DNA of 64,000 bases from an uncultured Solirubrobacteraceae bacterium (GCA_963715385.1 OY970237.1:2334610-2398609); one strand, 5' to 3'; shown: positions 33,706 to 63,940, counted from the stretch's first letter. The notes: generated by a model not told the origin, from the letters alone. Numbers and translations: made by a program.

Positions 33706-33741
33706 CCTGACGATTGTAGAGCGAGAACCGGAGGCCGTCAA

Positions 33742-35283: not shown

Positions 35284-35373
35284 GCCCCACGCCGCCGCCG
35301 AGCGCTCCGTTTGGCGTCCGGTGGCGTGCGTGCGCGGCGCCAGCCCTCCGGGTGATCTGGCAGGCTTACGGCA

Positions 35374-40688: not shown

Positions 40689-40692
40689 GCGT

Positions 40693-43518: not shown

Positions 43519-43521
43519 GAC

Positions 43522-44079: not shown

Positions 44080-44132
44080 GCTAGCGTTCAACGCCGGAAC
44101 TGATTGCCGGTCGCTGCTGCCAGACTGCGCCA

Positions 44133-44897: not shown

Positions 44898-45051
44898 CCC
44901 TCGCCCACGTCGCACAATCGGCGATGCGCGACGTCGCACGGCGCGTACTCGTCATCGACCGCATCAAACGGTATCGCTGAGTCAATAAGCCGGAAATCTC
45001 TGGCAGATCACCGCAGACCGTCAAGCTGCTATGGCCCAATAGCGGACGGCA

Positions 45052-46050: not shown

Positions 46051-46065
46051 ACCTTATTTGTAAGG

Positions 46066-46503
46066 CTAAGACGAGTAGTCCTCGTCAACCACCTTGTCGT
46101 TCTTGATCTTCTCGTGCTTGTCTTCCCCACTAAGCACTAGTCGAAATACCACAAACGTCGCATCCTCGTCAGCGACATTTGCGAAGGTATGCACGCTACG
46201 CCCAACGCGGACGACATCACCACTGCCGATCGTCTCGCACTTAGTTGTTCCCCTATTCCGCCATCTCACCTCCAGCTCACCCTTGAGTACCAAGACCGTC
46301 TCCTCAATAGCTTCATGGTGGTGCCACTGCTGCACCGTACCTGGCGCGATCTCATTGAAGTGAAGCTCGTACTCAGCAAAAATGTAGTAACTAACCTTGG
46401 TGCCTTCACCCTTGTCCACATCAATTGCCTGGGTTCGCCTCACGATCTCCACTGAGTCGCCTGGGTCTTTTACGGCACTATCGTATCTCGGGATGTCACT
46501 CAT
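46066..46503 (-). CDS. Cupin domain protein
   Basis: WHHHEAIEETVLVLKGEL and VHTFAN motifs. Confidence 0.85.
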   Translation of the reverse strand: MSDIPRYDSAVKDPGDSVEIVRRTQAIDVDKGEGTKVSYYIFAEYELHFNEIAPGTVQQWHHHEAIEETVLVLKGELEVRWRNRGTTKCETIGSGDVVRVGRSVHTFANVADEDATFVVFRLVLSGEDKHEKIKNDKVVDEDYSS

Positions 46504-47636
46504 ATGAACATGTCGTAATCGTCCACATTACGTGTCGGCTCTCCATCGATCAACCACTGATTGGACTGATGCCTGATACAACTAAAGGAGCAGTCCCGTG
46601 ACGGGTTTACACGCTTTGCCGCTGCCAAGCGCGCGTTAGAGGTCCACATTTCACGAAAACCTTCTGTTGACGGATCGCCATACCGTGCGGAGGCGTTCCC
46701 ACGATGATAGGGGCACAAGTACGCGCCCGACGGGGTGAGCAGTGTCCGAAGCTCAACTGTGGGGCAATGATGATATGTCTTCGGCTCATCAAGTCGTTCA
46801 TCGGCGATTACTTTGTCAAGATGTGCAGGTGCAATTACATTGAAGGCCTCGCATTGAATATCGGCCGCAGCGGCAAGTTCGTCTATCAGAAGTTCACGTA
46901 GCTCACGGGGTTGGGCGACGAGTCGATGATTGAGGTCATACTCGGGCTTGAACTCGATGTAGTCGCATCCGATATCTCGCGCTAGGTGCGCCGCAGCCGC
47001 AACCTCGTCAAAGTTATGGTGGAGAATTGTTTTGCCTCTACGGGCGCGCCGCGCGATGAGTAGAAAGGAGTAACCAAGTGAACCGCGCCGATCGCGCGCC
47101 AGTGATCTGACGTTCTCGACCACCTCGGCAAAAGTGTCGCGCGTGCCACCGCGGCGCGGGCGAAACAAGTTGTAGGTGGCTGCAGACGCCGCATCGACGG
47201 AGACACGTGTCCATTCGACGTATCGCGCAACCACATCATGATGACGGTTCAACTGGGTGCCGTTTGTAGTAAGACCAACGGCAACATTTGCCTCTGCAAA
47301 CGCCTCGATGACGTCAGCGACCACTGGATGTAGCAACGGCTCCCCGCCGCCAATCAGGATCACAGCGCGAACACCGACCTCGCAGATCTCGGCGGCGAGC
47401 TCCAATAGTCTCTCGTTGGAGAACCGGCCGCGGTTCAAAAGCGAGCCACTGATGCACTCCGGGCAGGCCAGGTCACAGAACGTTGTCACATCGAGCTCAA
47501 CGACGGTCGGGGCGGCTAGTGACTTGCCCTCACGTACCTTCCCTACCTCTAGCGATAGCGAGCGCTGGTGAAGCTTCTCCGCGAGAGCGAGCCTTGAGCG
47601 GTGGTCGACTCGAGCTGACACGGACTGTACGATCAT
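46500..47636 (-). CDS. Radical SAM protein with SPASM/twitch domain
   Basis: CDLACPEC, GGGEPLL, TTNG, RVSVD; C-terminal CPT...CPY...C...C. Confidence 0.9.
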   Translation of the reverse strand: MIVQSVSARVDHRSRLALAEKLHQRSLSLEVGKVREGKSLAAPTVVELDVTTFCDLACPECISGSLLNRGRFSNERLLELAAEICEVGVRAVILIGGGEPLLHPVVADVIEAFAEANVAVGLTTNGTQLNRHHDVVARYVEWTRVSVDAASAATYNLFRPRRGGTRDTFAEVVENVRSLARDRRGSLGYSFLLIARRARRGKTILHHNFDEVAAAAHLARDIGCDYIEFKPEYDLNHRLVAQPRELRELLIDELAAAADIQCEAFNVIAPAHLDKVIADERLDEPKTYHHCPTVELRTLLTPSGAYLCPYHRGNASARYGDPSTEGFREMWTSNARLAAAKRVNPSRDCSFSCIRHQSNQWLIDGEPTRNVDDYDMFI

Positions 47637-48187
47637 TATTCGCTCCGTTCGGGGTCGTGCCTTAGTTTAAGTGATATCGGGGCAAAAAGCTCCGCCCAGT
47701 CGCGGGGATCGTCACCAGAGGTGTCCACGCAGCCCAGAGTGTCCAAATGCAGATTGAGCGGCATCATTGCGCGCAGATCGGTCGCTACTGCCTCACGTTC
47801 GGCTTCGTCAAGGGAGCCATAGATCGCGCTTAGATGCGGAAGATAGGGACGCGCTTGCTTGTGGCGCAAGGCGCGCCCACAGGCAGATCGGACGGCAAGT
47901 AGTGGCGCAGTCGCAGGGCATACGAAGAAGACACATTGGTAATAGGCTGTCGTATGCTCGACCGAATCGACTTGCAGGTCGATCGGCAGCTGGTCACAGG
48001 CGATCTCATCTAGAAGGCGCTCCACGTCGGCGATGTTAGCGGCGTCGCCGTTCCCGATGACGGTGACGTGAGGCGGAAATGGAGGGGTCCCGTGGGCAGC
48101 GGATAGCCGGTTGATGACCGCGGCGAGCTTGTCGGCCTGCTCTGCGCATGGGCGTAGCCATATCGAGAGTGCTCGGCTGGAAGTCAT
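47636..48187 (-). CDS. 2H phosphoesterase / cyclic phosphodiesterase
   Basis: PPHVT and LPHLS motifs; TAATG coupling to radical SAM gene. Confidence 0.85.
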   Translation of the reverse strand: MTSSRALSIWLRPCAEQADKLAAVINRLSAAHGTPPFPPHVTVIGNGDAANIADVERLLDEIACDQLPIDLQVDSVEHTTAYYQCVFFVCPATAPLLAVRSACGRALRHKQARPYLPHLSAIYGSLDEAEREAVATDLRAMMPLNLHLDTLGCVDTSGDDPRDWAELFAPISLKLRHDPERSE

Positions 48188-48224
48188 TCCACGCCTGCAA
48201 ACATATCGAGCTGGCATCGCTCCA

Positions 48225-48821
48225 TCAGATAAGGCCGAGCAAGTGTGCCGCGCCAAGCACTGCGGACACCGCTACTGCGCTGGTCGCGAAGTTTTGAAGT
48301 CCGGATGCGAGCAAGTCGCGCACACTGGGACCAGTTGTTTCCATCGCCCGGTGTTTGGTAAGGGGGTTGCGAGCCGGCGCATTTTTCGGTTCCGGGTCGA
48401 CGATCCCAAACCATACGCTCCCAAGGAGGAGTCCGCGCTCGATACGAACAGCCTTCTTCCCAGCATTGAAGACTGTGGGCTTGATCTGCCCCTCGAAGTT
48501 CGGATCGACCTTGAGGTTAGCGACGAGCAGTCCGTTGGCCGCCTGCGATGTCTTCGAACATACCTGCCCGAACACATTCTTGGGCGTTTTGATTTTCTCG
48601 TCAACCTCAATGCGCACGCACTCGCCGGGCTTTAGTGCGAAGCCCTTCTCTCCTATATCCTGCTCGCCGCCGAAATCGACCTCGTAGACCTCTCCGACAT
48701 GGAGATCGAGCGCGACACGCTCTGGCCCCTTCAACATCTTCTTGATCAGATCAACGTCCTCGTCCCGAGCACTTTCGACAGTGATTTCAGCTTTTCCCCA
48801 GCACTCAATAGGAATGATCAC
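48225..48821 (-). CDS. dCTP deaminase/dUTPase-fold protein with C-terminal hydrophobic helix
   Basis: DLHVG, LKPGE, SKTS, VDPNFEG, VFNAG; tail FATSAVAVSAVLGAAHLLGLI. Confidence 0.7.
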   Translation of the reverse strand: MIIPIECWGKAEITVESARDEDVDLIKKMLKGPERVALDLHVGEVYEVDFGGEQDIGEKGFALKPGECVRIEVDEKIKTPKNVFGQVCSKTSQAANGLLVANLKVDPNFEGQIKPTVFNAGKKAVRIERGLLLGSVWFGIVDPEPKNAPARNPLTKHRAMETTGPSVRDLLASGLQNFATSAVAVSAVLGAAHLLGLI

Positions 48822-49056
48822 TCACGGCCCCTCCAGTTAGCCTCTGCCGAGCTTGCCGCCTGACGCCTAGCAGATCTGAATGTCGGAATAATAGCCGCTG
48901 ATGATCTTCAGCGCATCCCTGGAGTCGCCCTGTCAGTCTCGGTGCTCGCCTGTCGCACAAGTGCCATTCGGCGGCGGGCATTCTCCCGTAGGCCGTAGCG
49001 CAGTATTGCTGCGTGGTGGCCTACGGGATCAGCCGTATGCGCTTCGGGTTCGATGG

Positions 49057-49317
49057 TTAGACGACGCGCCCGCCTTGTAGCTCGGTGTAGCGGATCGCTT
49101 GCCGAGTGGCGAAGATGAATCCGTCGACCGTTCGGTGGATGAGCCCCGCTCGGCGCAGAGACCCCAGGGCGTCGTCTGCGTCGATTGAATCCCCGACCTC
49201 GCGGCCTATCTCGTCGGGGGACCAAATGGATTGCTCGGAGGGCTCGACTAGGAGGTGCAGGACTGCTAGCTCAACGGCGTCGAAGCGTTCGGCAGGTGTA
49301 CGCTCGTCATCGGACAT
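49057..49317 (-). CDS. Small winged-helix-like protein, paralog A
   Basis: GREVGDSIDADDAL..L...GLIHR...FIFATR.AI. Confidence 0.65.
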   Translation of the reverse strand: MSDDERTPAERFDAVELAVLHLLVEPSEQSIWSPDEIGREVGDSIDADDALGSLRRAGLIHRTVDGFIFATRQAIRYTELQGGRVV

Positions 49318-49466
49318 GGGAGATCATTCCTCTCTTGTCTCGGGCCTCGGCGCGGTGTCAGCCGCGTCGAGGCCACTTGGTTTTCGGAGCGCCCGAAGCT
49401 AGGTCTGTGCTGCGTGAGCGGTCAACGTGTGCGGCGGCCGCCGCGGACGGTCACGCTGACCCGCGC

Positions 49467-49718
49467 CTACCAAGTCGCGCCAAAGAGGTCGTGCAGGTGG
49501 ATGGCGGCGCGGGTGGGGAAAACGTAGTCGCCCTGGCGATGGATGAGCCCGACGTCGGAGAGGACGCGCATGGCGTCGAGGGCGACGATCAGGTCGCCGA
49601 CGTGGCGGCCAAGTTGCTCGACCGTGTACCAGTCCTCACCGGCCCACAGGACGAGCATGAGGATTTGCCGTTCAAAGTTCGACGGCACGTCGTCATAGTC
49701 GAGGGCAGTCTTTGTCAT
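49467..49718 (-). CDS. Small winged-helix-like protein, paralog B
   Basis: GRHVGDLIVALDAM..L...GLIHR...YVFPTR.AI. Confidence 0.65.
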   Translation of the reverse strand: MTKTALDYDDVPSNFERQILMLVLWAGEDWYTVEQLGRHVGDLIVALDAMRVLSDVGLIHRQGDYVFPTRAAIHLHDLFGATW

Positions 49719-49786
49719 GGCCCAGGACGGTAGGCCAGCGGGGGACGGCGGAACAAGGTGTGGGACGAGGCGCGGGCCCGCTTCGG

Positions 49787-50146
49787 TCAGCGGGGTTTAC
49801 GACGACCGGCCACCGATGCCTCGATGCGCTCCATGCCGCTACGGATCGCGGCAAGCTCGGAAAGCACGCGCTGCTCGAAGGCACCGCTTCCGGCCTCGCG
49901 GCCAGCGATCCGCATCAGCTCGAGGCGGTCGGCGCTAAGCACCTCGGCCAGCCGCTCTATGACCTCATCGCCGGGCGGCCCGTAATCGCCGACCTCGACC
50001 CTCGACAAGTGACCAGGGCTCATCGGTAGCTGTTCGGCTACCTCGCGTTGAGTCGGCTTCTTCTCGCGGCGTAGGGAGCGGATGCGTTCGCCGAAGGCGA
50101 CGGCACGCTCGGCTTGGGATTTGGGGCGTCGTGCAGGCGCCACCAA
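49787..50146 (-). CDS. XRE family HTH regulator (5' end possibly altered)
   Basis: FGERIRSLRRE...TQREVAE....SPGHLSRVE.G. Confidence 0.8.
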   Translation of the reverse strand: MVAPARRPKSQAERAVAFGERIRSLRREKKPTQREVAEQLPMSPGHLSRVEVGDYGPPGDEVIERLAEVLSADRLELMRIAGREAGSGAFEQRVLSELAAIRSGMERIEASVAGRRKPR

Positions 50147-50403
50147 GCGCCGCTACAACCAAGCGTTCTTCCAGAAGCTCTACGTGACGCCCGAATGGGA
50201 TGAGCAGCAAGGCCAACTGGTCGCCCGGATCACCAAGGCCGAGCTGACCGAGCCCTATGCGCTGCTTCTGGCCGACGACTTGGCCGAGGGCGTACTGGCC
50301 GAGGCTGAGGCCATCACGGCCCAGGCCAACGCCGAAAGGGCTTCAGACAGCCAGATTGGCTATCCGAAGCCCTTTGCTGTCGCGTGTTCATACTTCGTGA
50401 AGA
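50134..50403 (+). pseudogene. C-terminal remnant of a large serine recombinase
   Basis: KRRYNQAFFQKLYV tail motif pointing at the tRNA 3' end; no catalytic domain; family call from recall. Confidence 0.55.
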
Positions 50404-50495
50404 TGGCGGAGAGGGCGGGATTCGAACCCGCGATGGAGTTTGACCCCCATACTCGCTTAGCAGGCGAGTGCCTTCAGCCACTCGGCCACCTCTCC
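50404..50495 (-). tRNA. tRNA-Ser(GCT), CCA encoded
   Basis: GGAGAGG acceptor, CTCGC-CTGCTAA-GCGAG anticodon arm, long variable arm, GGTTCGAATCC. Confidence 0.97.
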
Positions 50496-50565
50496 CGGGA
50501 ATAGGGGTGCCAGTGTAGAGACTGACAAGCCCTGCCGAGAGACCACGTAGCATCTGAGGCCCTCC

Positions 50566-50655
50566 GGAAGGGTGGCAGAGCGGTTGAATGCGGCGGTCTT
50601 GAAAACCGTTAGGCGGGCAACACCCGTCTCGGGGGTTCGAATCCCCCCCCTTCCG
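50566..50655 (+). tRNA. tRNA-Ser(TGA), CCA not encoded
   Basis: GGAAGGG/CCCTTCC acceptor, GCGGT-CTTGAAA-ACCGT anticodon arm, GGTTCGAATCC. Confidence 0.97.
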
Positions 50656-50807
50656 TCCCGCGTCTAGTGGCCCCTCATGGCGACATCGCGTGTCGCATGT
50701 CCGGGTAGAGCTTGATCTGACGATCGTCTGCGAGCCCGGCCCAGGGTGGCGAGTCATCGGGTCGATTCCGGAGGTCGCTGGGGTCTCAGCCGGGGCCGCG
50801 GGTTGCG

Positions 50808-52478: not shown

Positions 52479-53489
52479 CTACAGCAGCTCCAGATCTCCC
52501 AGTGAGAGTGCCCACGAGGCCGCCAGCGTCGGGTCGGGAACGATGCCCTCGCGCAGCGGATTCGCGGTCAGAGCAGCGCCGCGAAGCGACTCGAGAAAGC
52601 CGCATCGCGCAGCCTGGCGGCGCGATGGAAAGGCACATGCGACGCCATCCACCGGGGCGGCCCTCCTGACACCGCGCAGGAGCCGGCGGACGATCCGCCG
52701 TTCGCCGCGCTCGGCCAACAGCTCACAGACCTGGGAGACCCAGAAGCGCCCGTGGCGGCGGACCCGGAAGATCGCCAGCCCGGAGCAATGCCCATCCTCG
52801 CCGGCCACGAGCGCCCGGTACTCCTCGAAGCGCCCGTAGCGCCAGCGCAGGTAGTCGAGATCCTTGGCCGTCACGTAGCGATCGCCGGGCTCGCCCGTAC
52901 GTTCGAGCAGGCGCGACAGGCCGGCCCCGTCATCCAGCACCGTGGCGGCGGTGTCGGCTTCGACGGAGATGCGCTCGGGGGTTCTCGATCCGCGTGCGGA
53001 CGCCCGCCGAACCGTCCCCCACGGCGTACCGCCGAGCGCCACGAAGCGCGGAACGCCGTTGACTTTGCGCCGGCCGGACTTGAGAACGCCTCCGCGGCTG
53101 TACTCGTTGGGGTTGTTCCAGCCGAAGGAGGTGTCCGGCGGGAAGTGCTCGCGGGCCGCGTTGATCAGCGCCATCGAGGCTCCGCGACGCCGGACGGCGG
53201 GGTCTACGGCCAGGTCGACGCCGCGAATCGTCTTTCGCAACTGGCCGTCGACCTGCAAGCGCCACGTCAGCAACCCGAGAAAGCCGATGATCGTGCACTC
53301 GGCCTCCGCGAGCAGCCCGATCGATGGCCCGAACGGACTGGCCATGTGCTTCCAGTGGAAGAACTCGGCCGCCGTGACCCCGTCCACGTGCCGCGGCCAT
53401 TCGCCGAACGCCGCCTGCAGCAGCTCGAGCACACGCGGCTCGTCCGCGGCCTCGAACACCCGAACGCTGACGGCGCCGCCGTGAGCCAT
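52479..53489 (-). CDS. GNAT family acyltransferase (tandem GNAT-like)
   Basis: FFHWKH..SPFG, GVDLAVDP..RRRG, FGWNNPN, YLRWRY. Confidence 0.8.
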   Translation of the reverse strand: MAHGGAVSVRVFEAADEPRVLELLQAAFGEWPRHVDGVTAAEFFHWKHMASPFGPSIGLLAEAECTIIGFLGLLTWRLQVDGQLRKTIRGVDLAVDPAVRRRGASMALINAAREHFPPDTSFGWNNPNEYSRGGVLKSGRRKVNGVPRFVALGGTPWGTVRRASARGSRTPERISVEADTAATVLDDGAGLSRLLERTGEPGDRYVTAKDLDYLRWRYGRFEEYRALVAGEDGHCSGLAIFRVRRHGRFWVSQVCELLAERGERRIVRRLLRGVRRAAPVDGVACAFPSRRQAARCGFLESLRGAALTANPLREGIVPDPTLAASWALSLGDLELL

Positions 53490-53513
53490 CGGCTTAGCCT
53501 ACGCCCGTCGCCG

Positions 53514-55385
53514 TTATGACACCTTGACCGTGCGGGCCGTGGCGATCACCGCGCCGGCCGCATTCAGCGCCTGTACCGTCATGTATGGGCCACCAACTCC
53601 CGCCGGCAGCGCGATCGCGGTCTCGAAACCGGTGCGCCCAAGTTCTGCCACCGGCTTCAGACTGCCCGGAGCCGTGCCCGACAGCACCCGCCAGCCGCTC
53701 ACGAGCGTGGCGCCGTTCCAACTGGCGTAGACGGCGCCGGCGCCGTGCGCGCCCGCTTGAAAGGCGAACGCCGGCGCATCGGCGGGCGTGCCGGTCCACT
53801 CGAAGCGCAAGTCGCGGTAGGACTGTGTATGCGCCGGGAAGTGTGCGTCGAACAGCAGCGCTCCAGCGGAGTTGAACTCCGAGAAGCCCGGAACCTGGCC
53901 CCAGCCCGCGAACCAGTCGCCGTTTGCCAGCGCCTGAAAATTGCCTTGGCTGTCGGCCAGCAGCGGGGGCGGATGGTCGATCTGGCTGAGAAGCATCGCC
54001 GTCTTGTGCTGCGCGTCGAGTCCCAGCACGATCCCACGCGATTGGCTGTGCACCGCCGGCGAGGCGCCGTTGTCGAACAAGCTGATCGACCCGTCGGGGA
54101 GCTGGCGCGGGTCGTGCTGCCAGGCGGTTCGTGTGCCCGGCCCCATCTTGAAGCTGCTGCGCTTTCCTCCCAACCGCCACAGGATCTGGCCGCTGCGGGC
54201 GTCCAGGTCGTAGGTGGCCCAGGTGTTGCGAGCGGAGATCAGTAGGCTGCCATCCCCATCGACGTTGATCGAGTTGATGTGGAAGAAGTCGAACGGCGCG
54301 GGCGCCGAAGTCCTGGTGGCCTTCGCGTAGGACTCGCTCAGCGCGACGTGGTCGAGGCTCGACCACTGGAACATGACCAGCCCGGTCTTTACGTCGATCT
54401 CCTGCAGCAGTCCGTCGGTGATGCCGTCGTAGCGGGAGCCGCCCGCGGAGGAGAGGTCGCAGAGGATCGGCTGATAGGCGGTGATCAGCGCGGTCCCCTG
54501 CGGGGTCAGCTGAAGCTCGTGCAGGTCGGCCTGCACGCCGTTGCCCGCTTTCACGTGTGCGATCTCCTGATACGCCTGATCGGCGATCACTCCTTCGCCC
54601 AAGCCGTAGCCGTGGACCGAGATGTCCCCCTGCCACCAACTCAGAACCGGCTTGCCCAGGTACTCCTGCACGCGCAAGTTGGTCGCGAAGGTGTTCGCCG
54701 GCAGGGGCTTGAACCACAGCAGCCCGCCGCTCTGATCGAGAATCATCGGGCCGGCTTGCCCCGGCCCGGTGTACGGCGCGAGGAACTCATCGCCGGGCGC
54801 GACGGCGGGCGAGGAGGCGGTCACCGTCACGACCGGCGGGCGCAGGTCCGCCCGCGAGCGAAACGCCTGGACGTCGCTGGGTCGGCCGGGGTGGGTCGTC
54901 TCCGGCGTGGAGCTGATCAGGTCCCGATCGGCGATCGCGAACCGATCGAGGAGCGTATGCGTGGAGGCACCCTCGCGCAGCTGGGCACGAACCGTGACCC
55001 GCTCTCCTTCCGCGAACGGCCGCGAGGGCAGGAAGCTCGCACCGTTGCCCTGCGAATACGGAGCGAGACGCCCACCATGGGCGCCACTCTGCGAGCCGCT
55101 TACGCGGAGATCGCTCAATTGCCGTGCGGGGACCCCGAGAAAGCTAATCTGAGTCCGTGCTGAGGCATCGCGGCTGCCGGGCAGCGGAGACATCGTCACC
55201 GTGCCCGCCTGCACCGCGGAGGTGTTCAACGTGGCCGGCGTGCAGGCCGGAGCGCGTGTCGCCGCGAAGGCGTCCGCGGCGGATAGCCCAATCCCCAGCG
55301 CGACCGGCAGCCCTGGTAGGAGTAGAGCACGGACGATGAGTAAGAACCCCGAGCAGGACAGACGAGTCGATCGCCGCACGTTCAT
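53514..55385 (-). CDS. Secreted arylsulfotransferase (ASST) family protein 1
   Basis: DLHEL, DFFHINSI, SARNT, WQHDPR, SQGN; start uncertain. Confidence 0.8.
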   Translation of the reverse strand: MNVRRSTRLSCSGFLLIVRALLLPGLPVALGIGLSAADAFAATRAPACTPATLNTSAVQAGTVTMSPLPGSRDASARTQISFLGVPARQLSDLRVSGSQSGAHGGRLAPYSQGNGASFLPSRPFAEGERVTVRAQLREGASTHTLLDRFAIADRDLISSTPETTHPGRPSDVQAFRSRADLRPPVVTVTASSPAVAPGDEFLAPYTGPGQAGPMILDQSGGLLWFKPLPANTFATNLRVQEYLGKPVLSWWQGDISVHGYGLGEGVIADQAYQEIAHVKAGNGVQADLHELQLTPQGTALITAYQPILCDLSSAGGSRYDGITDGLLQEIDVKTGLVMFQWSSLDHVALSESYAKATRTSAPAPFDFFHINSINVDGDGSLLISARNTWATYDLDARSGQILWRLGGKRSSFKMGPGTRTAWQHDPRQLPDGSISLFDNGASPAVHSQSRGIVLGLDAQHKTAMLLSQIDHPPPLLADSQGNFQALANGDWFAGWGQVPGFSEFNSAGALLFDAHFPAHTQSYRDLRFEWTGTPADAPAFAFQAGAHGAGAVYASWNGATLVSGWRVLSGTAPGSLKPVAELGRTGFETAIALPAGVGGPYMTVQALNAAGAVIATARTVKVS

Positions 55386-57153
55386 CAAGAACGGGCTGAT
55401 CACCGGCGGCGCGCTGGCGGGCGCCGGGCTGGGGATCACGCGGGCCGTGGATGCCACGCAGGGATCGCAGCTCACCGGGGGCGCCCCGGCGCAGAAGCCG
55501 GCTGTCTCACGCGGGCGCACACGCCGCCCGAACATCCTCGTGATCGTGGTCGATCAGATGCGCTTTCCACAGTGGCTCCCGACGGGGATCAACGGGGCGG
55601 CGCTGCCGCCCAACCTCCAGCGCCTGCGCAATGGCGGCGTCTCCTTCGCCCGGCATTACACGGCCGCCAACGACTGTACCCCGGCGCGCTCGACACTTCT
55701 GACCGGCCTCTACACACATCAGACCGGCTGCATGATCACGGGCGGCAGCAACCTGGACCCCGGCTTCCCGACCTGGGGAACGATGTTGCGCGAGCACGGC
55801 TATCGCACCCGCTGGTATGGCAAGTGGCATCTCACCCATCGCGACAACCACTGGGGCGCGAAATTCGGGCCTCGCGCGCTCGCGCGCTACGGCTTTGCGG
55901 GAGGCACCTATCCCTCCCCCAACGGCGCACCCGGCCAGGGCTGGCGCCGAGACCCGTACATCGCTCGGCAGTTCGAGCATTGGATCGCACGGGAGAGCGG
56001 CGCCAAGCCGTGGTGCACGACGGTCTCCTTCGTCAACCCCCACGACATCGCCTGGTGGTACGCGTGGAGCGATCGCGTGCCGGGCGAGGCGCGCGCCGAG
56101 AGCGTGGCCGGGGGCCTTCCGCCCAACTTCGAGACGCCCGAAGTGATGATCGAGCGCAACAAGCCGCGACTGCAGCGCTCGCTGCAGGACACCGCGGCGG
56201 CCGCCTTTGGCCCGGTCCCGTTCACCGGTCTTGAAGCAGCCCCCCGGTGGGCTGAATTCCTCGACCTGTACGCGAAGCTCCAACTGGAGGTCGACCGCCA
56301 CATCGGCCAGGTGCTGCGGGCGCTGCACGACCGGCCCGAGGTCGCCGCCAACACGGTGATCCTGTTCACCTCCGACCACGGTGAGTACGGCGGCTCGCAT
56401 GGCCTGCGGGGCAAGGGCGCCGCCGCCTACGAGGAGGCGATCCGGGTGCCGCTGATCGTCAAGGACCCGCGCGGAGTGCTGACCCGCGCGCCGGAGCAGG
56501 AGCGCGTGCAGTTGAGCTCCAGCGTGGACGTCGCGCCGTTGCTGCTGACGATCGCCACCGGATCGAACCAGTGGCGCACCGAAGAGCACTACTCGCATCT
56601 CGCCGGGCGTGCGGACCTCGCCGCGATCCTCGCCGATCCGGGCGCACCAGGCCGTCCGTACGTGCTGCACGCGACCGATGAGACCGTGACCGAGTTTGCG
56701 ATCGAGCCCTACGCTGCCAACGCGCCCCGTCATGTCGTCGCGATGCGCACGCCCACGGCAAAGTTCGCCAGCTACTGCGACTGGCCCAGCACGGGAATCG
56801 AACCGCTGTCGCAGGGCGCCGAACACGAGCTATATGACTACAGCACGGACAGCGGCCGCCTGGAGCTGCACAACAGCGCGGGCGAGAGCAGGCTCGAGGA
56901 TGGGCTGCGCTCCGCGTTCGAGCAGGCGTTCGCCGAGGAGCTTCGGCGCCCGCTGCCCCCGCGCCTGACTGAAGCGCACGCGCGTGGATTTGCCGACTAC
57001 TTCTCCACCGCCAGGCACGCCGAGGACAACGCCGCGGCCGCACGTCAGCGCCGCTCCGAACAGGAAACCGAGGGCCTGGAAGAAGGAGGGATCACCCCGC
57101 AGGAGCCACTCCTGCAACATCTCAGAGCCGCTTCACAGGCGAAGCGCCGATGA
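55336..57153 (+). CDS. Tat-exported formylglycine-type sulfatase
   Basis: DRRTFIK Tat motif; VVDQ, CTPAR (CxPxR), GKWH, SDHG. Confidence 0.92.
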   Translation: MSKNPEQDRRVDRRTFIKNGLITGGALAGAGLGITRAVDATQGSQLTGGAPAQKPAVSRGRTRRPNILVIVVDQMRFPQWLPTGINGAALPPNLQRLRNGGVSFARHYTAANDCTPARSTLLTGLYTHQTGCMITGGSNLDPGFPTWGTMLREHGYRTRWYGKWHLTHRDNHWGAKFGPRALARYGFAGGTYPSPNGAPGQGWRRDPYIARQFEHWIARESGAKPWCTTVSFVNPHDIAWWYAWSDRVPGEARAESVAGGLPPNFETPEVMIERNKPRLQRSLQDTAAAAFGPVPFTGLEAAPRWAEFLDLYAKLQLEVDRHIGQVLRALHDRPEVAANTVILFTSDHGEYGGSHGLRGKGAAAYEEAIRVPLIVKDPRGVLTRAPEQERVQLSSSVDVAPLLLTIATGSNQWRTEEHYSHLAGRADLAAILADPGAPGRPYVLHATDETVTEFAIEPYAANAPRHVVAMRTPTAKFASYCDWPSTGIEPLSQGAEHELYDYSTDSGRLELHNSAGESRLEDGLRSAFEQAFAEELRRPLPPRLTEAHARGFADYFSTARHAEDNAAAARQRRSEQETEGLEEGGITPQEPLLQHLRAASQAKRR

Positions 57154-59002
57154 CCGTGCCGGCGGCATCGAGCGCCTGCGCCTGGACATAGGCGCCGGCC
57201 GCCTCCGACGGCAGCGCCATCGCCGTCTCAAAGCCGCTCCTGGCCGAGCTGCAGACGGGTGCCAGCTTCGCGGGCGACGGCCCCGCAAGCACGCGCCAGG
57301 AGGCGACATCCGTCGCGCCGTTCCAGCTCGCGTATGCGACCGCGCCGCCGTGCGCGGCGGGCGGCTTCGCCAGGGCCAGCGCCGGGGAATCGGCCGGCCG
57401 GGCGCTCCACGCGAGCCGGTAGGCTCGATAGGACTCATAGGCGGCCGGCATGTGCGCGTCGAGGAGCAGTTGGCCGGACGGGCTGAATTCAGAGATGTAG
57501 GGGACCTCGCCCCACCCCACCATCCAGGCGCCGTTGGGCAGGGCCTGCAGGTTTCCCTGGCTGCCGGCGACCAGCGCCTTCGACGGGTGCGTGTCCGCAC
57601 GCACGAGCGTCGCCGTCTTGCGCTGTGGATCGAGCCTCACGGCGATCGCCCGCGACTCAGGATGAATCGCCGGTGTCGCGCCGTTGTCGAAGAAGGTGAT
57701 CGTTCCGTCCGGCTGCCGGCGTGCGTCGTGCTGCCAGGCCGTGCGCGTGCCCGCCCCCATCTTGAAGTTGCTGTGCTTGCCGCCTAGCTGCCAGCGCACC
57801 CGGCCCGTACGCGCGTCGAGGTCGTAGGCGGCCCACGTGTTGCGCGCATCGACGAGCAAGTCGCCGTTCGGCTGCACGTCGATCGAGTTGATGTGGAAGT
57901 AGTCGAACGGCGTCTTGCGGCTCGCGTGCCGGCCGGAGGCGTAGGAGCGCGCGAGGGCGACGTGATCGAGGCTGTGCCACTCGAACATCACAAGGCCCGT
58001 CTTGAGGTCGATCTCCTGCAGCAGCGTGTCCGCCACGGCCGCATTGCGCGGGCCCCCGACGGCGGTCAGATCGCAGTTGATCCCGTTGAACACCGTGATC
58101 AGCCCGGTGCCCCGCGGGGTGATCTGGAATTCGTGCAGATCGGGCTGATAGCCGTTGCCGGCGCGCACGACCGCGAGCTGGCGGTATGAACTGTCGAGGA
58201 TCACCTCGCCCGCCTTGCTGGAGCCGCCGGCGCTCAGCGGGTCCTGCCACCAGGTGAGCACGGGCCTGCCTTCATACTGCTGAACCCTGAAGTCCGCCGC
58301 GCGCGTGCCCTGCGGTGAGAGCGGCTTGAACCACACCATCGCGCCGTCTTCATCGAGGATCATCGGGCCGTACTGCCCCGGACCCGAGTACGGGGCCACG
58401 AACAGATCGCCCGGAGCGGTGCCCGCGGTGTGAGTCGTCACGGTCACCGTGGGCGGCTTCAGGTCTGGGCGGGAGTGGAAGCTCTGGTAGTAGGGAGGGT
58501 GTGGCGGTGGGAACGGGCTGCCGCCCGCTTCTCCGGCGCGGTCGCGCACGGCGACCGTGAAGCTCCAAGAGAACGGGATCGTCGTGCCGTCCGCTCGCAG
58601 CTCGGCGTGAACGCTCACGAGCTCGCCTTCCGTGAACGGCTTTGATGGCAGGAAGCTCGCGCCGTCGCCCTGCGAGTAGGCGAGCAAGCGACCGGAATGG
58701 CCGCCGCTGCGCGAGCCCGTGACGGTGACGTGCGAGAGCGCCGTCGCGGGCACGCCGAGCATGCTGATCTGGGTCAGCGCGGAGGCGTCCCGCGTCTGCG
58801 GTCCCGGAGAGACCGTCACCCGCGAGCCGGCCAGCGCGGCGGAGACGTTCAGGCGCGGGGGCGTGCAGCGCGGGTTCGCGGGGATACCCGCGGCGCGAGC
58901 GCTCGAGGAGCGCCACGAGTACCTCCCGAGCAGGCCCACGACACCCCCCAGCACCGCAAGGCCGGTGAGCAGCGCGCACACGCGCGAGCGGCGTCTGCTC
59001 AC
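57122..59002 (-). CDS. Secreted/anchored ASST family protein 2
   Basis: DLHEF, DYFHINSI, DARNT, WQHDAR, SQGN; GTGA coupling to upstream gene. Confidence 0.82.
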   Translation of the reverse strand: MSRRRSRVCALLTGLAVLGGVVGLLGRYSWRSSSARAAGIPANPRCTPPRLNVSAALAGSRVTVSPGPQTRDASALTQISMLGVPATALSHVTVTGSRSGGHSGRLLAYSQGDGASFLPSKPFTEGELVSVHAELRADGTTIPFSWSFTVAVRDRAGEAGGSPFPPPHPPYYQSFHSRPDLKPPTVTVTTHTAGTAPGDLFVAPYSGPGQYGPMILDEDGAMVWFKPLSPQGTRAADFRVQQYEGRPVLTWWQDPLSAGGSSKAGEVILDSSYRQLAVVRAGNGYQPDLHEFQITPRGTGLITVFNGINCDLTAVGGPRNAAVADTLLQEIDLKTGLVMFEWHSLDHVALARSYASGRHASRKTPFDYFHINSIDVQPNGDLLVDARNTWAAYDLDARTGRVRWQLGGKHSNFKMGAGTRTAWQHDARRQPDGTITFFDNGATPAIHPESRAIAVRLDPQRKTATLVRADTHPSKALVAGSQGNLQALPNGAWMVGWGEVPYISEFSPSGQLLLDAHMPAAYESYRAYRLAWSARPADSPALALAKPPAAHGGAVAYASWNGATDVASWRVLAGPSPAKLAPVCSSARSGFETAMALPSEAAGAYVQAQALDAAGTVIGASPVKRL

Positions 59003-60807
59003 TCCTTGACCGTGGACGAGGTGCCGATCACGGCGCCCGAGCCGTCGAGCGCCTGCACAGCCAGATACGGACCTGTCGTGTGCGCCGTGATCGTCGTCTG
59101 AAAGCCCGCGGCCGGGGCGCTCGTGACGGGCGCCAGCGTCGAGCTGGGGGAGCTTCCCTCCAGCACCCGCCAGGAAGCGACATCGGTGGCGCCGTTCCAG
59201 CTCACAGAGACCGCGACCGCGACCGCTCCCGCGGAGCGCACCGACACGGACGGCCGCCCCGCCGGCTGCCCACTCCACGGCGAGAGATAGGTCCGGAAGT
59301 TCTGGACGTCCTTGCCGAGCGTGGCGTCCAGGAGCACGTGTCCGGATGCATCGAACTCCGTGAAGTTCGGCAGCCCGCCGTAGCCGAGCAGCCAGTTGCC
59401 ACCGGGCAGGCTGAGGGTGTTGCCCTGGCTCGAGGCGAGCAGCCTTTTGGACGGGTTCACGAGCTGCTTGACGAGGCTGACCGTGTGATTGGAGGTGTCC
59501 GGGCGCAGCAGGATCCCGCGCGACTGCCTCTCCTTGGGCGGCGCCGAGCCGTTGTCGAACATCGAGATCAGCCCGCCCGGCTGGAACTCGGAATCGTGCT
59601 GCCAGTAGAAGCGCGTGCCGGCGCCCTGCTTGAAGCTGCTGCGCTTGCCGCCGAGACGCCAGTGGATGGCGCCGCTGTGCAGGTCGACGTCATACAGGGC
59701 CCAGGTGTTGCGCGCTGAAAGCAGTAGATCGTCCGAGGGGCCGGGATCGGCGGTGTTCATGTGTACGTAATCCCACGGGTAGCCGTTGCTGCGCACGGGG
59801 TTGTAGGACTCGCTCAGAGGGATGTGACCGAGCGAGTGCCACTCCCACATGACCAGACCGGTCTTGATGTCGATCTGCTGGATCACCGAGTCGGTGAGGA
59901 TGCCGTCGGCGGAGCCGTGCACGCTCGACAGGTTCATGTGGATCGGGTCGAACACGTCGATCCACGCGGTCCCCTCCGGAGTGAGCCGGATCTCGTGCAG
60001 ATCGGCGTGGTAGCCGTTGCCCGCCCTGACCCGCGCGATGCGCCTGTAGGAACTGTCGTAGATGACGTTTTCACCCTCGCCGAAGCCAACCTGGATGATC
60101 CGCCCCTGCCACCAGGTGAGCACCGGTTTGCCCTGATAGGACTGCACCTGGAAGTTCGTCGCGTCGACCCCGGCGGGGAGCGGGTGAAACCACACGAGGT
60201 TGCCCTTCTGATCGACGATCATCGGGCCTGAGGCGCCCTTTCCCTGGTAGGGGGCCAGGAAGAGCTCCCCGGGCGTCGCGCCCGGCTTCGCGGGCGTCGT
60301 GATCTTCACCGAGGAGGGAGTCAGCGCGGGCGCCGAGCTGTAGTGCTGCACCGCCTTGGAGTCGCCGGGATTCCTCGGAAACTGCTTCTGGCTGACCGTC
60401 GCCTGATGGGCGACGGTGAAGCTCGTGCTCGCCTCCTGGGACCCGACTTGGGCATGAACGGTCACACGCTCGCCGGCGACGAACGGGTGCGAGGGCAGAA
60501 AGCTCTCACCCGTTCCCGTCGAGTAGGCCCGCAGGGTTCCCGAGTGCGTGCCGCTGTGGGAGCCGACCACGTGCACGCCGGAGATCTGCGTGCCGGCTCC
60601 GCCAAGGAAGCTGATCTGCGTGCTCGGCGAGGCGTCTGGAGTGCCCGGCAGCGGCGAGACCGTCACCGAGCTGGCCGCCACGGTCGCGCTCGGAGTGCCG
60701 TGGCCGAGCGCAGCCGATGTGGCAGGCGAGGCGCCGCCGCACGCGCAGATGCCGGCGACCGTTGTGAGCGCAGCGAGTAGGACCACAGCTGGACGAGCGG
60801 CTCTCAT
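58999..60807 (-). CDS. ASST family protein 3 (probable lipoprotein)
   Basis: GICACGG lipobox-like; DLHEI, DYVHMNT, SARNT, WQHDSE, SQGN. Confidence 0.82.
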   Translation of the reverse strand: MRAARPAVVLLAALTTVAGICACGGASPATSAALGHGTPSATVAASSVTVSPLPGTPDASPSTQISFLGGAGTQISGVHVVGSHSGTHSGTLRAYSTGTGESFLPSHPFVAGERVTVHAQVGSQEASTSFTVAHQATVSQKQFPRNPGDSKAVQHYSSAPALTPSSVKITTPAKPGATPGELFLAPYQGKGASGPMIVDQKGNLVWFHPLPAGVDATNFQVQSYQGKPVLTWWQGRIIQVGFGEGENVIYDSSYRRIARVRAGNGYHADLHEIRLTPEGTAWIDVFDPIHMNLSSVHGSADGILTDSVIQQIDIKTGLVMWEWHSLGHIPLSESYNPVRSNGYPWDYVHMNTADPGPSDDLLLSARNTWALYDVDLHSGAIHWRLGGKRSSFKQGAGTRFYWQHDSEFQPGGLISMFDNGSAPPKERQSRGILLRPDTSNHTVSLVKQLVNPSKRLLASSQGNTLSLPGGNWLLGYGGLPNFTEFDASGHVLLDATLGKDVQNFRTYLSPWSGQPAGRPSVSVRSAGAVAVAVSVSWNGATDVASWRVLEGSSPSSTLAPVTSAPAAGFQTTITAHTTGPYLAVQALDGSGAVIGTSSTVKE

Positions 60808-60970
60808 CTGGGGGGCTACGCGCGCCCGATGTGGTGGGTCATATGGCTCGAACCCAGCGGGCGGCGCGGGCATGGCGGACTCGTCATCGCCGGTGATCGT
60901 AGCGGGAGCGCAAGCGGCCGGAGCCGGTCGCACGGAGCGTGCGCGGCGCGAGAAACGCCGATACGGGAAC

Positions 60971-63940
60971 CTAGGAGCCGAGCGTGAACGGCCGGGAAGC
61001 TCCGATCACCCGCCCGTCGCCGCTGAGTGCCTGGACCTTGAAGCTGTGATTGCCCTGAGCGACGGGGACCGCCGTCTCAAAGCCGGACTTGGCGCTCCTC
61101 GCCACAACCGCCAGCCGGCTGGGACTGGGTCCAGCCAGCACCCTCCAGGACGCGACCTCGGTGGCCCCGTTCCAGCTCGCGTACACGGTTGTCGTGCCAC
61201 CCGCCGCACGCGCGACGCCGACCGGCGAGGAGAGTGGCAGGCCGACCCATCGCTCGACGGTCGCTCTGTAGCTGACGTTCGGGCCCGGGAACTCGCCTTC
61301 GAACAGCAGCCTGCCCGAGCGGTCGTACTCGGAGAAGTACGGTTCCGAGCCCCAACCGACGAACACGTCGCCGCCCGGCTGAGGTTGCGTGTCGCCCATG
61401 TATTCCGAGCGAAAGCCGCCTTTGTTGCCGTACTGCGCGGCCAGCGTCGCCCTGCGCGTCTGCTGATCGAGCGAGAGCAGGAGCCCGCGCGAAGGCCCGG
61501 GCGGATCGACGGAGGTACCGCCGCCGGTCAACTGGCAGCAGTGGTCGTCGAACAGGCTGATCGTCGAGTCACCCTGCAACGCTACGTCGTGCTGCCATTC
61601 GAAGCCGGCGCCCGGGCCGAACTTGAAGCTCGAGTCCCTGCCGCCGAGCGTCCACCGGATCCTGCCGCTGTCGATGTCCACCAGGTAGGCGGCCCACGTG
61701 TCGCGCATCGAGACGAGGAACTTGCCCTCGCCCGTCAGCTGGATCGAGTTGACGTGGTAGGCGTCCCAGGGAAACCCGTTGGTCGGCAGCGTTGCCTGGG
61801 ACTGGCTCAACGGGATGTGGTCGAGCGCGTCCCAGTTGCGCTCCAGTCGGCCCGTCCTCAGGTCGTACTCCTGCACGGCCGAATCGATCAACGCGCCGTT
61901 GTAGGCGCCGCCGTACCTGGACAGGTCCTTGGGCACGTTCTTGTTCGCGGTCACCCACGCGTGCTCTCCATCGATCACGAGCTCGTGCAGTGTCAGCACC
62001 CAGCCATCCTTGGCTCTCAGCCGCGCAACCGGCTTGTAGTGCTGGTCGACGACGACGTACTCGCCGCTTTCGGTCGAGCCCGTGTTCGTGACGACGCCCT
62101 GCCACCAGGCGAGCACCGGCTTGCCGTGATAGCTCTGCAGGCTGAGGTTGGCGGCGACGACTCGTTCGGGCACCGGCTGGAACCAGACAGGCTGCAGGTC
62201 GCGGTCGAGGATCAGCGGCCCGCTCTGACCGACGATCGGCGGTTCGTTGAGGTCGTAGAAGTTCGCCGTGAAGATGTAGCCGGGCGCGAGCCGCCGGGCG
62301 GGTGCCCGCTTGACGCTGCGGATCTGCGGCGGGTGAAGCGCCGGCGCGGTGACGAAGGTGTAGGCGTCCTTCGTTGTGTATTGCCCGATCGGAGCGCCCC
62401 GCGAGCCCGCGAACGCGGCAGTGAGCCCGACGAACACCGCCAGCACGAGCGCGATCGCCCCGGCAAAACGCCGCGGCGCCGCTCCTAGCGCGCTCTCCGG
62501 TTTCGGTACGGCCACGAACGTGATGACAGCGGCCAGACCGGCGAGGCAGGCGGCGATCAGGTAGGCGAGGGCGAAGCCGTGGGTGAGCGCCGCCGCGACC
62601 TGTTCGCCTGAGCCGATCAGGTTGGTCGAGCGTTGCGTCGCGAACGTGATCAGCAGTGCCAGGCCCAAGCCGCCGCCGACCTGGCGGGAGGTGTTGACGA
62701 GCCCCGACGCGAGGCCGGCCTGACCCTCCTTCGCTCCGTGAGTGGCGGCGATCGTCGAGGGGACGATCGACATCGCGATCCCCGCCGCCGTCAGCACGCC
62801 GGGAATGACGACGTAGACGATCGGACTGCCGCTCGGCCCGATCCGCGTGAACAGCAGCAGCCCCGCGGTCAGCATGAGCAGCCCCCCTCCGAGGACCGTG
62901 CGCACGCCGAACTGGCTCACCAGCTTGCCGGCGCGAGAGGCGATCAGCATGATCGTCAACGTCATCGGCAGGAAGATGAGGCCGGTGTGCAGCGGCGAGA
63001 GACCGAGCACCTGCTGCAGGTACAGCGAGCTCACGAACCACATCGGGAAGAGCGCCGCGCTGAACAGCAGGACGATGTTGTTGGCGACCTTCAGCGGCTT
63101 GGTCAGCTCCTTGAAGGGGATCAGCGGCGCCGAGGCCACGCGCGTCTCGATCAGGCCGAACACCCCGAGCAGCGCGGCGCCGATCGCGATCGGGCCGAGC
63201 GCGGCGAGCGTGCCCCAGCCCTTCAGGCCCGCTTCGACGACCCCGTAGACGAGCACCATCTGACCGAGCGTCAGCGTCAACGCCCCGGCAAGGTCGAAGG
63301 GAGGCGCATCTGGGCCCTTGCGGCGCTCCGCGACGACGGCGTAAGCCACGAGTGCGGCGGCGATCGCGATCGGGGGATTGATCAGCAGGACCCAACGCCA
63401 GCTGAGCACTTCGGTGATGATCCCGCCGAGCAGCACTCCGGCCGCGCCGCCGAGTCCGTTCATCGCCGCCCAGATTCCGATCGCCCGGTGTCGCTTGGGG
63501 CCCGCCGGAAACGATGCGGTGATGATCGCTAGCGAGGTCGCGGCCATCAGAGCGCCGGCGAGACCCTGCACGCCGCGAGCGGCGACGAGCGTCACCTCGT
63601 TGGGCGCGAGGCCGCCGGCCAGCGAGGCCAGCCCGAACAGGGCCAGCCCGGCGACGAGCGTGCGGCGCTGGCCGAAGTGGTCGGCCGCGCGACCGCCGAG
63701 CATCAAAAAGCCGGCGAACGTGATCGCGTACGCATCGACGACCCATTGCAGATCCGGCGAGGTGAAGCCGAGATCCGACTGGATCGACGGCAGCGCGACG
63801 TTGACGATGCTCAAATCGAGAATCACCATGAACTGCGCCACGCAGCACACGACCAACAGCCACGCCGAACCCGACCCCTCCCTGCTCTCGGCCGGAGGGC
63901 TCTCGATCACTCCCGGACTGCTCGTCGCCTCGACGCTCAT
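60971..63940 (-). CDS. DHA2 MFS transporter fused to a C-terminal ASST domain (989 aa)
   Basis: FMVILDLSIVNVALP, GGRAADHFGQRR; extra TM FAGAIALVLAVFVGLTAAFA; TLHEL, DAYHVNSI, SMRDT, WQHDV; single open frame. Confidence 0.85.
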   Translation of the reverse strand: MSVEATSSPGVIESPPAESREGSGSAWLLVVCCVAQFMVILDLSIVNVALPSIQSDLGFTSPDLQWVVDAYAITFAGFLMLGGRAADHFGQRRTLVAGLALFGLASLAGGLAPNEVTLVAARGVQGLAGALMAATSLAIITASFPAGPKRHRAIGIWAAMNGLGGAAGVLLGGIITEVLSWRWVLLINPPIAIAAALVAYAVVAERRKGPDAPPFDLAGALTLTLGQMVLVYGVVEAGLKGWGTLAALGPIAIGAALLGVFGLIETRVASAPLIPFKELTKPLKVANNIVLLFSAALFPMWFVSSLYLQQVLGLSPLHTGLIFLPMTLTIMLIASRAGKLVSQFGVRTVLGGGLLMLTAGLLLFTRIGPSGSPIVYVVIPGVLTAAGIAMSIVPSTIAATHGAKEGQAGLASGLVNTSRQVGGGLGLALLITFATQRSTNLIGSGEQVAAALTHGFALAYLIAACLAGLAAVITFVAVPKPESALGAAPRRFAGAIALVLAVFVGLTAAFAGSRGAPIGQYTTKDAYTFVTAPALHPPQIRSVKRAPARRLAPGYIFTANFYDLNEPPIVGQSGPLILDRDLQPVWFQPVPERVVAANLSLQSYHGKPVLAWWQGVVTNTGSTESGEYVVVDQHYKPVARLRAKDGWVLTLHELVIDGEHAWVTANKNVPKDLSRYGGAYNGALIDSAVQEYDLRTGRLERNWDALDHIPLSQSQATLPTNGFPWDAYHVNSIQLTGEGKFLVSMRDTWAAYLVDIDSGRIRWTLGGRDSSFKFGPGAGFEWQHDVALQGDSTISLFDDHCCQLTGGGTSVDPPGPSRGLLLSLDQQTRRATLAAQYGNKGGFRSEYMGDTQPQPGGDVFVGWGSEPYFSEYDRSGRLLFEGEFPGPNVSYRATVERWVGLPLSSPVGVARAAGGTTTVYASWNGATEVASWRVLAGPSPSRLAVVARSAKSGFETAVPVAQGNHSFKVQALSGDGRVIGASRPFTLGS

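Follow-up and report, generated by a model that had tools for sequence, protein, structure and literature searches.

Aryl sulfotransferases that work independently of 3′-phosphoadenosine-5′-phosphosulfate (PAPS), abbreviated here as ASSTs, are enzymes whose catalysis is well understood and which serve in biocatalysis. According to a review from 2026, the natural substrates and the physiological roles of the bacterial enzymes are still poorly understood (PMC13426309). Here we analyse a locus that comprises four ASST domains, one of them fused to a transporter of the major facilitator superfamily (MFS), and an opposed sulfatase. It is located at positions 52479-63940 of a 64,000-nt stretch of DNA, the whole of which is called the window, from an uncultured Solirubrobacteraceae bacterium (GCA_963715385.1 OY970237.1:2334610-2398609; lineage Thermoleophilia, Actinomycetota). 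The closest relatives of the encoded proteins point to the same family, and the G+C content of the 64-kb window is ~69%.

The closest characterised relative of the ASSTs of the window is Cpz4 of Streptomyces sp. MK730-62F2 (caprazamycin; PDB 9KF4 and 9KF6, the latter titled "reaction intermediate"), which belongs to the same Pfam family, PF14269. Aryl sulfates, among them p-nitrophenyl sulfate, serve as donors of Cpz4, a sugar hydroxyl is its preferred acceptor, and the reaction is independent of PAPS (PMC13426309). In the caprazamycin pathway, the donors are phenolic sulfate esters that are made by the PAPS-dependent enzyme Cpz8 (PMC4257720). Cpz4 is part of an antibiotic cluster that includes the donor-making Cpz8 and a type III polyketide synthase (PKS). 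In contrast, the locus described here has five paralogues with predicted export, the fifth of them beyond the window, one of the five is fused to a pump, and a sulfatase lies beside them. Donor-making genes were not found nearby, so that a two-step system of the caprazamycin type (Cpz8, type III PKS, and Cpz4) is not what the locus represents.

A more distant relative is AssT of E. coli CFT073 (3ELQ, 3ETS, and 3ETT), the active site of which consists of His252, His356, Asn358, Arg374, and His436, with His436 as the residue that is sulfated (PMC13426309). AssT resembles the window ASSTs in its extracytoplasmic location, which is predicted for the latter, in the succession of an N-terminal beta-sandwich and a six-bladed propeller, and in catalytic residues that correspond one to one. 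A disulfide is required by AssT, and for three paralogue groups of the window family a pair of conserved cysteines is predicted. However, AssT represents the PF05935 branch, has ~15% identity to the window ASSTs, and is encoded by a single gene in an operon with DsbL/DsbI, with neither a sulfatase nor a transporter.

Two further systems are relevant for the partners of the ASSTs. In proteobacteria, for instance in Pseudomonas with atsA and the importer atsRBC, sulfate esters are scavenged by loci that pair an arylsulfatase with an ABC importer, are under sulfur-starvation control, and are not known to include an ASST. Such loci share with the locus described here a formylglycine-type sulfatase for sulfate esters, a common source of sulfur in soil, but here the partners of the sulfatase are five transferases and an MFS protein of the exporter type. 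The DHA2 drug:proton antiporters (14 helices) LmrA, EmrB/QacA, and TcmA are the best matches of the N-terminal ~480 residues of the fusion, which has ~14 hydrophobic segments in this part, whereas the fusion adds a 15th helix and a 480-residue enzyme domain that is predicted to be extracytoplasmic.

Six genes were found in the locus, and only the sulfatase gene is on the plus strand. The genes and their parts are:

52479-53489, minus strand: acetyltransferase-like protein of the Gcn5-related N-acetyltransferase (GNAT) type, 336 aa (Pfam Acetyltransf_1, PF00583, 26.8 bits)
53514-55385, minus strand: ASST1, secreted form (PF14269, E 4.7e-59)
54933-55199, minus strand: N-terminal immunoglobulin (Ig)-like beta-sandwich of ASST1 (AlphaFold model), with equivalents in ASST2 and ASST3
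55336-57153, plus strand: Cys-type S1 sulfatase (PF00884, E 1.6e-40)
57122 to ~59017, minus strand: ASST2 (PF14269, E 1.9e-49), start at GTG 59017 or 59002
58999-60807, minus strand: ASST3, predicted lipoprotein (PF14269, E 5.4e-51)
60971-63940, minus strand: fusion of a DHA2-like MFS transporter, a 15th transmembrane helix, and an ASST, 989 aa (MFS_1, PF07690, E 7e-50, and PF14269, E 1.9e-40)
62507-63940, minus strand: MFS part of the fusion, residues 1-478, ~14 helices by hydropathy scan, with Pfam MFS_1 over residues 42-435
62411-62467, minus strand: 15th transmembrane helix of the fusion, residues 492-510 (hydropathy 2.43)
60974-62410, minus strand: ASST propeller and C-terminal sandwich of the fusion, residues 511-989 (40% identical to Cpz4)

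ASST propellers, transporter fusion, and sulfatase

A first-pass annotation of the window had placed four ASST domains, a sulfatase, and an MFS transporter in this region, and all of them were recovered with Pfam. At the level of domains, this description is correct, and the scores are far beyond chance. All four ASST copies matched Arylsulfotran_2 (PF14269) with 139-201 bits, compared to a cut-off of 27, and PF05935 likewise exceeded its cut-off; in the fusion, the PF14269 match corresponds to the C-terminal half. The identity to Cpz4 is 40-44% over ~450 residues for all four copies, with ASST3 at 44% and the fusion propeller at the lower end. A phmmer search of the PDB with ASST1 yielded one strong relative, i.e. 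Cpz4 (9KF4/9KF6; E 2e-104). The same structures were retrieved by Foldseek with the AlphaFold model of ASST1 (E 1e-38, target-normalised TM-score 0.85), and the next-best fold match was E. coli AssT (3ELQ; E ~1e-11). The model has the six-bladed beta-propeller fold of Cpz4 and AssT. Cpz4 also has the same catalytic H, H-x-N, R, and Q-H-D residues and the same C-terminal sandwich (SWNGAT...WRVLAG). It differs in length (472 aa), aligns from residue 175 of ASST1 onwards, its PDB chain lacks the N-terminal Ig-like domain, and, judging from the alignment with ASST1 alone, it has no export signal.

The motifs LHE, HxN, R(N/D)T, and WQHD are invariant across the aligned four copies of the window. 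The respective H, H/N, R, and Q-H-D positions are also invariant in ~278 orthologous sequences, which represent five paralogue groups, and in Cpz4; for the fusion propeller, the catalytic residues are invariant in 81 orthologues. An alignment with E. coli CFT073 AssT by hhalign matched the histidine of LHE with His252, H-x-N with His356 and Asn358, the arginine of R(N/D)T with Arg374, and the histidine of WQHD with His436, i.e. the sulfo-histidine. The hhalign probability was low because the AssT template was a single sequence, yet all four anchor points were in register. For the numbering, a signal peptide that we take to be 27 residues long was subtracted from the AssT precursor, with the result that the residue numbers agree with the published ones and the Cys418-Cys424 pair is recovered. 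E. coli AssT was not reached by plain sequence or profile searches of the PDB with a window ASST; the link between the two was established via Pfam, Foldseek, and hhalign. The earlier statements that the four motifs are kept in all copies and that the proteins are ASST-type enzymes with the full sulfo-histidine set were thus upheld, by the residue-for-residue correspondence with AssT, by the orthologues, and by an assayed near relative, Cpz4. We predict with high confidence that the propellers of the window are active ASST-type enzymes.

The four copies appear to be anchored differently, as had been proposed initially and as was read again from the sequences, from hydropathy, and from the orthologues. 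ASST1 has a signal peptide that ends with AFA, and a signal peptide is also present in its orthologues. ATG 55385 is the only start that yields a signal peptide of the orthologue kind; a 559-aa form without signal peptide (database call P0121) is less likely, given that the orthologues keep it. ASST2 has one N-terminal hydrophobic helix at residues 13-31 by hydropathy, which could be a signal anchor or a signal peptide. ASST3 has the lipobox VAGICAC-GG; its likely start is ATG 60807 (MRAARPAVVLLAALTTVAGICAC-GG), while the reading frame is open to 60933. The lipobox was found in 38 of 49 ASST3 orthologues and recurs as L-(A/G)-(A/C)-C-G-G. A cysteine of the propeller (ILCDL) and a cysteine of an N-terminal segment (P-x-C-x-P) co-occur in ASST1, ASST2, and the fifth paralogue ASST0 (see below), and ASST3 and the fusion lack both. 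This suggests that the pair forms a disulfide in an oxidising compartment, as in periplasmic AssT. All ASST copies look as if they were located outside the cytoplasmic membrane.

An additional N-terminal domain of the three free copies had been pointed out before. Its existence was corroborated, a special character was not: the domain common to ASST1, ASST2, and ASST3 is modelled as a generic Ig-like beta-sandwich of ~7 strands (AlphaFold, pLDDT of 70-90 in this part of ASST1), and the fusion propeller lacks it. The best fold matches in the PDB were Ig-like domains of the mycobacterial L,D-transpeptidase LdtMt2, of CopC, and of S-layer proteins, with E values of at least 1.6e-3, and we read the domain as a probable generic stalk or spacer. 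The search did not retrieve the N-domain of AssT. Neither a counterpart of the latter nor a new fold was supported, as only generic and weak Ig-like matches were obtained.

In the fusion, the N-terminal half matched MFS_1 with 170 bits. The best NCBIfam matches of the MFS part were the LmrA, EmrB/QacA, and TcmA models (E 8e-65 to 4e-52), and all DHA2 scores were below the curated cut-offs, e.g. 194 compared to 230 bits for TIGR00711, the EmrB subfamily. A simple hydropathy scan found the ~14 MFS helices followed by the 15th, and the latter is preceded by the positively charged loop PKPESALGAAPRR, which contains three K/R. Because the 15th helix follows this loop, the fusion propeller is predicted to be outside; this topology would be consistent with the positive-inside rule. 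The reading frame is open to the end of the window, and the likely start is ATG 63940 (MSVEATS). A 1071-aa form, as called in a protein database, was rejected, as an in-frame stop is present at most 48 codons upstream in half of 81 orthologues.

The sulfatase matched PF00884 with 139.7 bits, and sulfatases of the PDB were matched with E values down to 6e-28, with mixed relatives. The best curated models were choline-sulfatase and arylsulfatase, with 111-121 bits compared to cut-offs of 433-481. The translation contains CTPAR, VVDQ, KWH, and SDHGE, i.e. the maturation motif together with metal-binding and catalytic residues, and the CxPxR motif (CTPAR) is present in 49 of 54 orthologues. Its export signal reads MSKNPEQDRRVDRRTFIKNGLITGGALAGAGLGITRAVDA and carries the twin-arginine translocation (Tat) motif DRRTFIK, which was found in 48 of the 54 orthologues, in support of the earlier designation as a Tat sulfatase.

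The sulfatase gene had also been described as embedded on the opposite strand with overlaps to both neighbours, and this is indeed the case. Its 3′-end is convergent with that of ASST2, the two share 32 nt (57122-57153), and two relatives have the same overlap. Its start, ATG 55336, is arranged divergently to that of ASST1 (ATG 55385), with an overlap of the 5′-ends of 50 nt (55336-55385). As a consequence of this divergent overlap, each promoter would fall inside the other gene. In the relatives, the gene callers instead set the ASST1 start 23-130 nt beyond the sulfatase start.

Conservation of the gene cluster

A scan of one genome per species revealed at least 80 related loci, all of them in uncultured Solirubrobacterales or Solirubrobacteraceae, with 71-87% identity to the fusion. 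The six window proteins were compared with these loci by tblastn, and the counts are based on the 64 loci with enough flanking sequence. The conserved order is ASST0 (a fifth ASST), fusion, ASST3, ASST2 (often absent), the opposed sulfatase, and ASST1. The occurrence in the 64 full loci was:

ASST0 directly upstream of the fusion: 64/64
ASST3: 49/64
sulfatase: 45/64
ASST1: 30/64
ASST2: 26/64
GNAT-like protein: 2/64
ASST0 and fusion alone, with unrelated genes downstream: 15/64

ASST0 has ~630 aa, the N-terminal helix MRRNxLIILG..., and the same Ig-like domain and catalytic set, and it is ~45% identical to ASST1 and ASST2. In every full locus (L002-L081, at ~7800-9700), its gene lies upstream of the fusion at a distance of 300-400 bp. 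In the genome under study, ASST0 would therefore be expected just past position 64000, with the locus being cut by the end of the window. Exact look-ups of the window proteins, aimed at the sequence past the window end, gave no match. The six genes of the originally proposed locus were all found, and the related loci point to the fifth ASST past the window end.

Two parts can be distinguished in the system. ASST0 and the fusion form an invariant core, and a common additional module comprises ASST3 and the sulfatase, to which ASST2 and ASST1 may or may not be added. In two of the loci (L011 and L051), the block of ASST3, sulfatase, and ASST1 is inverted and has moved upstream, and the three genes are still adjacent. 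The gene order, the linkage that is kept after the inversion, and the conserved 32-nt overlap support a functional linkage. Each ASST paralogue has its own orthologues with 60-75% identity, and the duplications are therefore older than the species.

The GNAT-like protein had been counted as a part of the cluster. Its domain is weak, but above threshold (cut-off for Acetyltransf_1 20.7 bits; Acetyltransf_9 was just under its cut-off). No relative was found in a search of the PDB and no export signal was found in the sequence, and its rarity in the full loci led us to reject it as a conserved member of the system. The genes that flank the cluster in the relatives are unrelated to sulfur and encode TetR, hydrolases, a sigma factor, and toxin-antitoxin proteins.

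The fusion is a stable gene throughout the lineage, and at least 120 homologues with at least 77% identity have the same architecture. A search of 1.84 billion cluster representatives was evaluated for the best 150 matches. Full-length MFS-ASST proteins among these best 150 formed one cluster at 50% identity, the representative of which (P0241, 67% identical, named "MFS transporter") is from a metagenome-assembled genome; the other matches were fragments or single-domain proteins. Because a distant fusion of both halves should still have scored into the best 150, the MFS-ASST architecture appears to be restricted to the Solirubrobacterales lineage. One metagenomic protein (P0246, 1006 aa) has two PF14269 propellers in tandem in one chain, and ASST paralogues thus also fuse with one another elsewhere.

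Conservation was seen in genomes of uncultured Solirubrobacterales, and it was not shown for Actinomycetota as a whole. The searched literature did not contain a description of a multi-paralogue ASST array at the cell surface, of an MFS-ASST fusion, or of a linkage to a Tat-signal sulfatase; nor was a paper on 9KF4 or on an arylsulfotransferase in Solirubrobacter found there, and the Pfam name occurred only in a plant review. Two of the findings that would have spoken against the first-pass annotation, i.e. lack of conservation or a previous description of the cluster in the searched literature, were not made. The enzyme family and its chemistry are already known, while the architecture and the genetic context are new.

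Possible roles of the locus

We consider it roughly 55% probable that the products of the locus form a PAPS-independent system for sulfuryl transfer, which operates at the outer side of the cytoplasmic membrane in this Gram-positive soil bacterium. To our knowledge, PAPS is absent outside the cell, and for this reason ASST-type transfer is the only known enzymatic route by which sulfate esters can be moved there. By analogy with the mechanism of the family, each propeller would use its WQHD histidine to accept a sulfuryl group from an aryl sulfate, and a hydroxyl acceptor would then receive this group in a ping-pong reaction. The pump would hand a small phenolic co-substrate directly to the fused propeller, and the sulfatase would hydrolyse sulfate esters in the same compartment. 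From the fusion of one propeller to an exporter, it can be argued that this propeller acts on the transported molecule, which very likely is a native donor or acceptor. Similarly, as the sulfatase is embedded in the cluster, ester hydrolysis can be argued to be part of the same process.

In the role that we rank first, albeit tentatively, external aryl sulfate esters would be processed via a phenolic carrier that the cell exports, and sulfate would be released. This carrier would collect sulfuryl groups from a variety of donors, and the groups would then be freed as sulfate, which would amount to sulfur acquisition. A hydrolase among transferases fits net sulfate release better than net synthesis. 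The first-pass annotation had suggested a sulfation/desulfation relay at the cell surface, acting on an exported metabolite or a wall polymer, or sulfate scavenging; these roles remain proposals, and neither a donor nor an acceptor can be read from the sequence.

Several points weigh against these proposals. The sulfatase needs formylglycine, and a formylglycine-generating enzyme was found neither among ~56 open reading frames (ORFs) of the window scanned with Pfam nor in a six-frame motif scan, which were not exhaustive; the first-pass annotation had also listed none in the window. Genes for the uptake of sulfate, sulfonates, or sulfate esters and a sulfur regulator were not found near the cluster, neither in the window nor in the flanks of the relatives. 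Fifteen of the 64 full loci have ASST0 and the fusion alone and no sulfatase within 10 kb, and the core therefore does not require a sulfatase in cis. The AlphaFold model of ASST1 is of moderate quality (pLDDT 66.7). DHA2 pumps export their substrates, and sulfur scavenging then requires that an exported carrier is assumed. The loci without sulfatase and the lack of nearby uptake genes weigh against the first-ranked role in particular, and the lack of donor-making genes weighs against a role with a donor made by the cell.

The latter role, i.e. biosynthetic sulfation outside the cell, is less probable. The cell would make an aryl sulfate donor by PAPS-dependent sulfation of a phenol in the cytoplasm, in a manner resembling Cpz8, Cpz6, and Cpz4, the pump would export this donor, the propellers would sulfate an exported metabolite or a glycopolymer of the envelope, and the sulfatase would trim the product or recycle the donor. 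This would be in line with Cpz4, which uses a cell-made aryl sulfate carrier and prefers a sugar hydroxyl, and a fusion of exporter and transferase is expected if the donor has to reach a PAPS-free space. The different tethers (integral, lipid-anchored, stalked, and secreted) could reach different layers of the envelope, and the retention of the core in genomes of ~3 Mb suggests a housekeeping role. However, none of the ~56 scanned ORFs of the window and none of the called genes in the 10-kb flanks of the relatives encodes a PAPS-pathway protein, a PAPS-dependent sulfotransferase, a type III PKS, or CysC/D/N. In addition, no sulfated envelope polymer is known to have been described for this lineage, although no search aimed at it was made, and the embedded sulfatase opposes net sulfation.

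A more elaborate proposal, which we regard as speculative, is a PAPS-free pathway by which sulfate esters would be made or moved outside a Gram-positive cell and which is built on an exported small aromatic carrier. The MFS part would secrete the carrier, the fused propeller would load or unload it at the exit of the pump, and the other paralogues (stalked, lipid-anchored, and secreted) would relay sulfuryl groups to or from distant insoluble soil esters or envelope polymers. If this were true, such a shuttle to the sulfate esters of soil would be a means of harvesting sulfur comparable to a siderophore for iron, and, for the first time, an extracytoplasmic ASST would have a physiological role and a set of native substrates assigned to it.

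It is unlikely that the locus serves detoxification. In this case, the pump would expel toxic phenolics (from plants, lignin, or humic matter), and the propellers would sulfate them outside at the expense of environmental aryl sulfates, yielding anions that cannot diffuse back. The best matches of the transporter are indeed efflux pumps for drugs and antibiotics, a fusion would put the modifying enzyme at the pump exit, and ASSTs readily sulfate simple phenols and polyphenols (PMC13426309). On the other hand, a steady external supply of aryl sulfate donors would be required, the co-located sulfatase would reverse the product, five conserved paralogues exceed the need of a single detoxification step, and the score for TIGR00711 is below its cut-off. 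Finally, it is highly improbable that the propellers are not sulfotransferases in vivo, i.e. that they are binding proteins that keep the fold or hydrolases, with an incidental clustering of the sulfatase: PF14269 has few characterised members and the structural model is only moderate, but the catalytic positions are invariant in the paralogue groups, Cpz4, and AssT, and the linkage of the sulfatase is conserved and outlasts rearrangement.

Returning to the sulfuryl-transfer system at the outer face of the membrane, the locus presents an ASST that has a physical link to an exporter and a genetic one to a sulfatase, and that is conserved in an abundant uncultured soil lineage. The transported molecule offers a concrete route to the native substrates of bacterial ASSTs. 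The pool of ester sulfate in soils is large, and if the role is sulfur harvesting, the locus bears on the access of soil bacteria to this pool.

Other features of the window

No public run of RNA or DNA sequencing was listed for the locus. Rfam revealed no RNA family inside the locus; the only matches were two tRNA-Ser genes at 50.4-50.7 kb. They are divergent, located at 50404-50495 (minus strand) and 50565-50658 (plus strand), and have the anticodons GCT and TGA, respectively. The same pair is present downstream of the ASST cluster in one of the relatives (L082).

Beside the tRNA genes, the region 41900-50400 is a low-GC island (0.56-0.63 compared to ~0.69). It contains an operon on the minus strand (45052-48821) that encodes a GHMP kinase, a cupin, a radical S-adenosylmethionine (SAM) protein, a 2H phosphoesterase, and a dCTP-deaminase/dUTPase-like protein. 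The radical SAM protein (46500-47636), the only one found in the window, has a weak viperin-like core (PADLOC, 1e-11). It was considered as a sulfatase maturase and rejected, as it has no SPASM domain, the NCBIfam matches listed for it do not include the model for anaerobic maturases, and its gene belongs to the separate low-GC island. Pfam matched none of the plus-strand ORFs at 42181-44897. Behind this tRNA pair, the closest relative has MazE/PIN genes and not the genes of the island, which may be a strain-specific, nucleotide-modifying defence island.

The region 23045-37350 encodes a GtrA-like protein, two GT2 glycosyltransferases (one with a pyruvyl-transferase domain), an NHL-repeat propeller, an MFS protein, and two paralogous proteins of ~715-750 aa that end in TIG/IPT domains; it is a probable cell-surface or glycan cluster. 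Further genes encode a full-length LigD with phosphoesterase, ligase, and primase-polymerase domains (69-2606) and a WS/DGAT wax-ester/triacylglycerol synthase (15381-17384). A sigma-70/DUF6596 gene and a YCII gene are located at 39429-41109 on the minus strand. In L082 and L083, two of the relatives, a similar pair borders the ASST cluster on its far side; this points either to a paralogous pair or, in the genome analysed here, to a rearrangement in the surroundings of the cluster.

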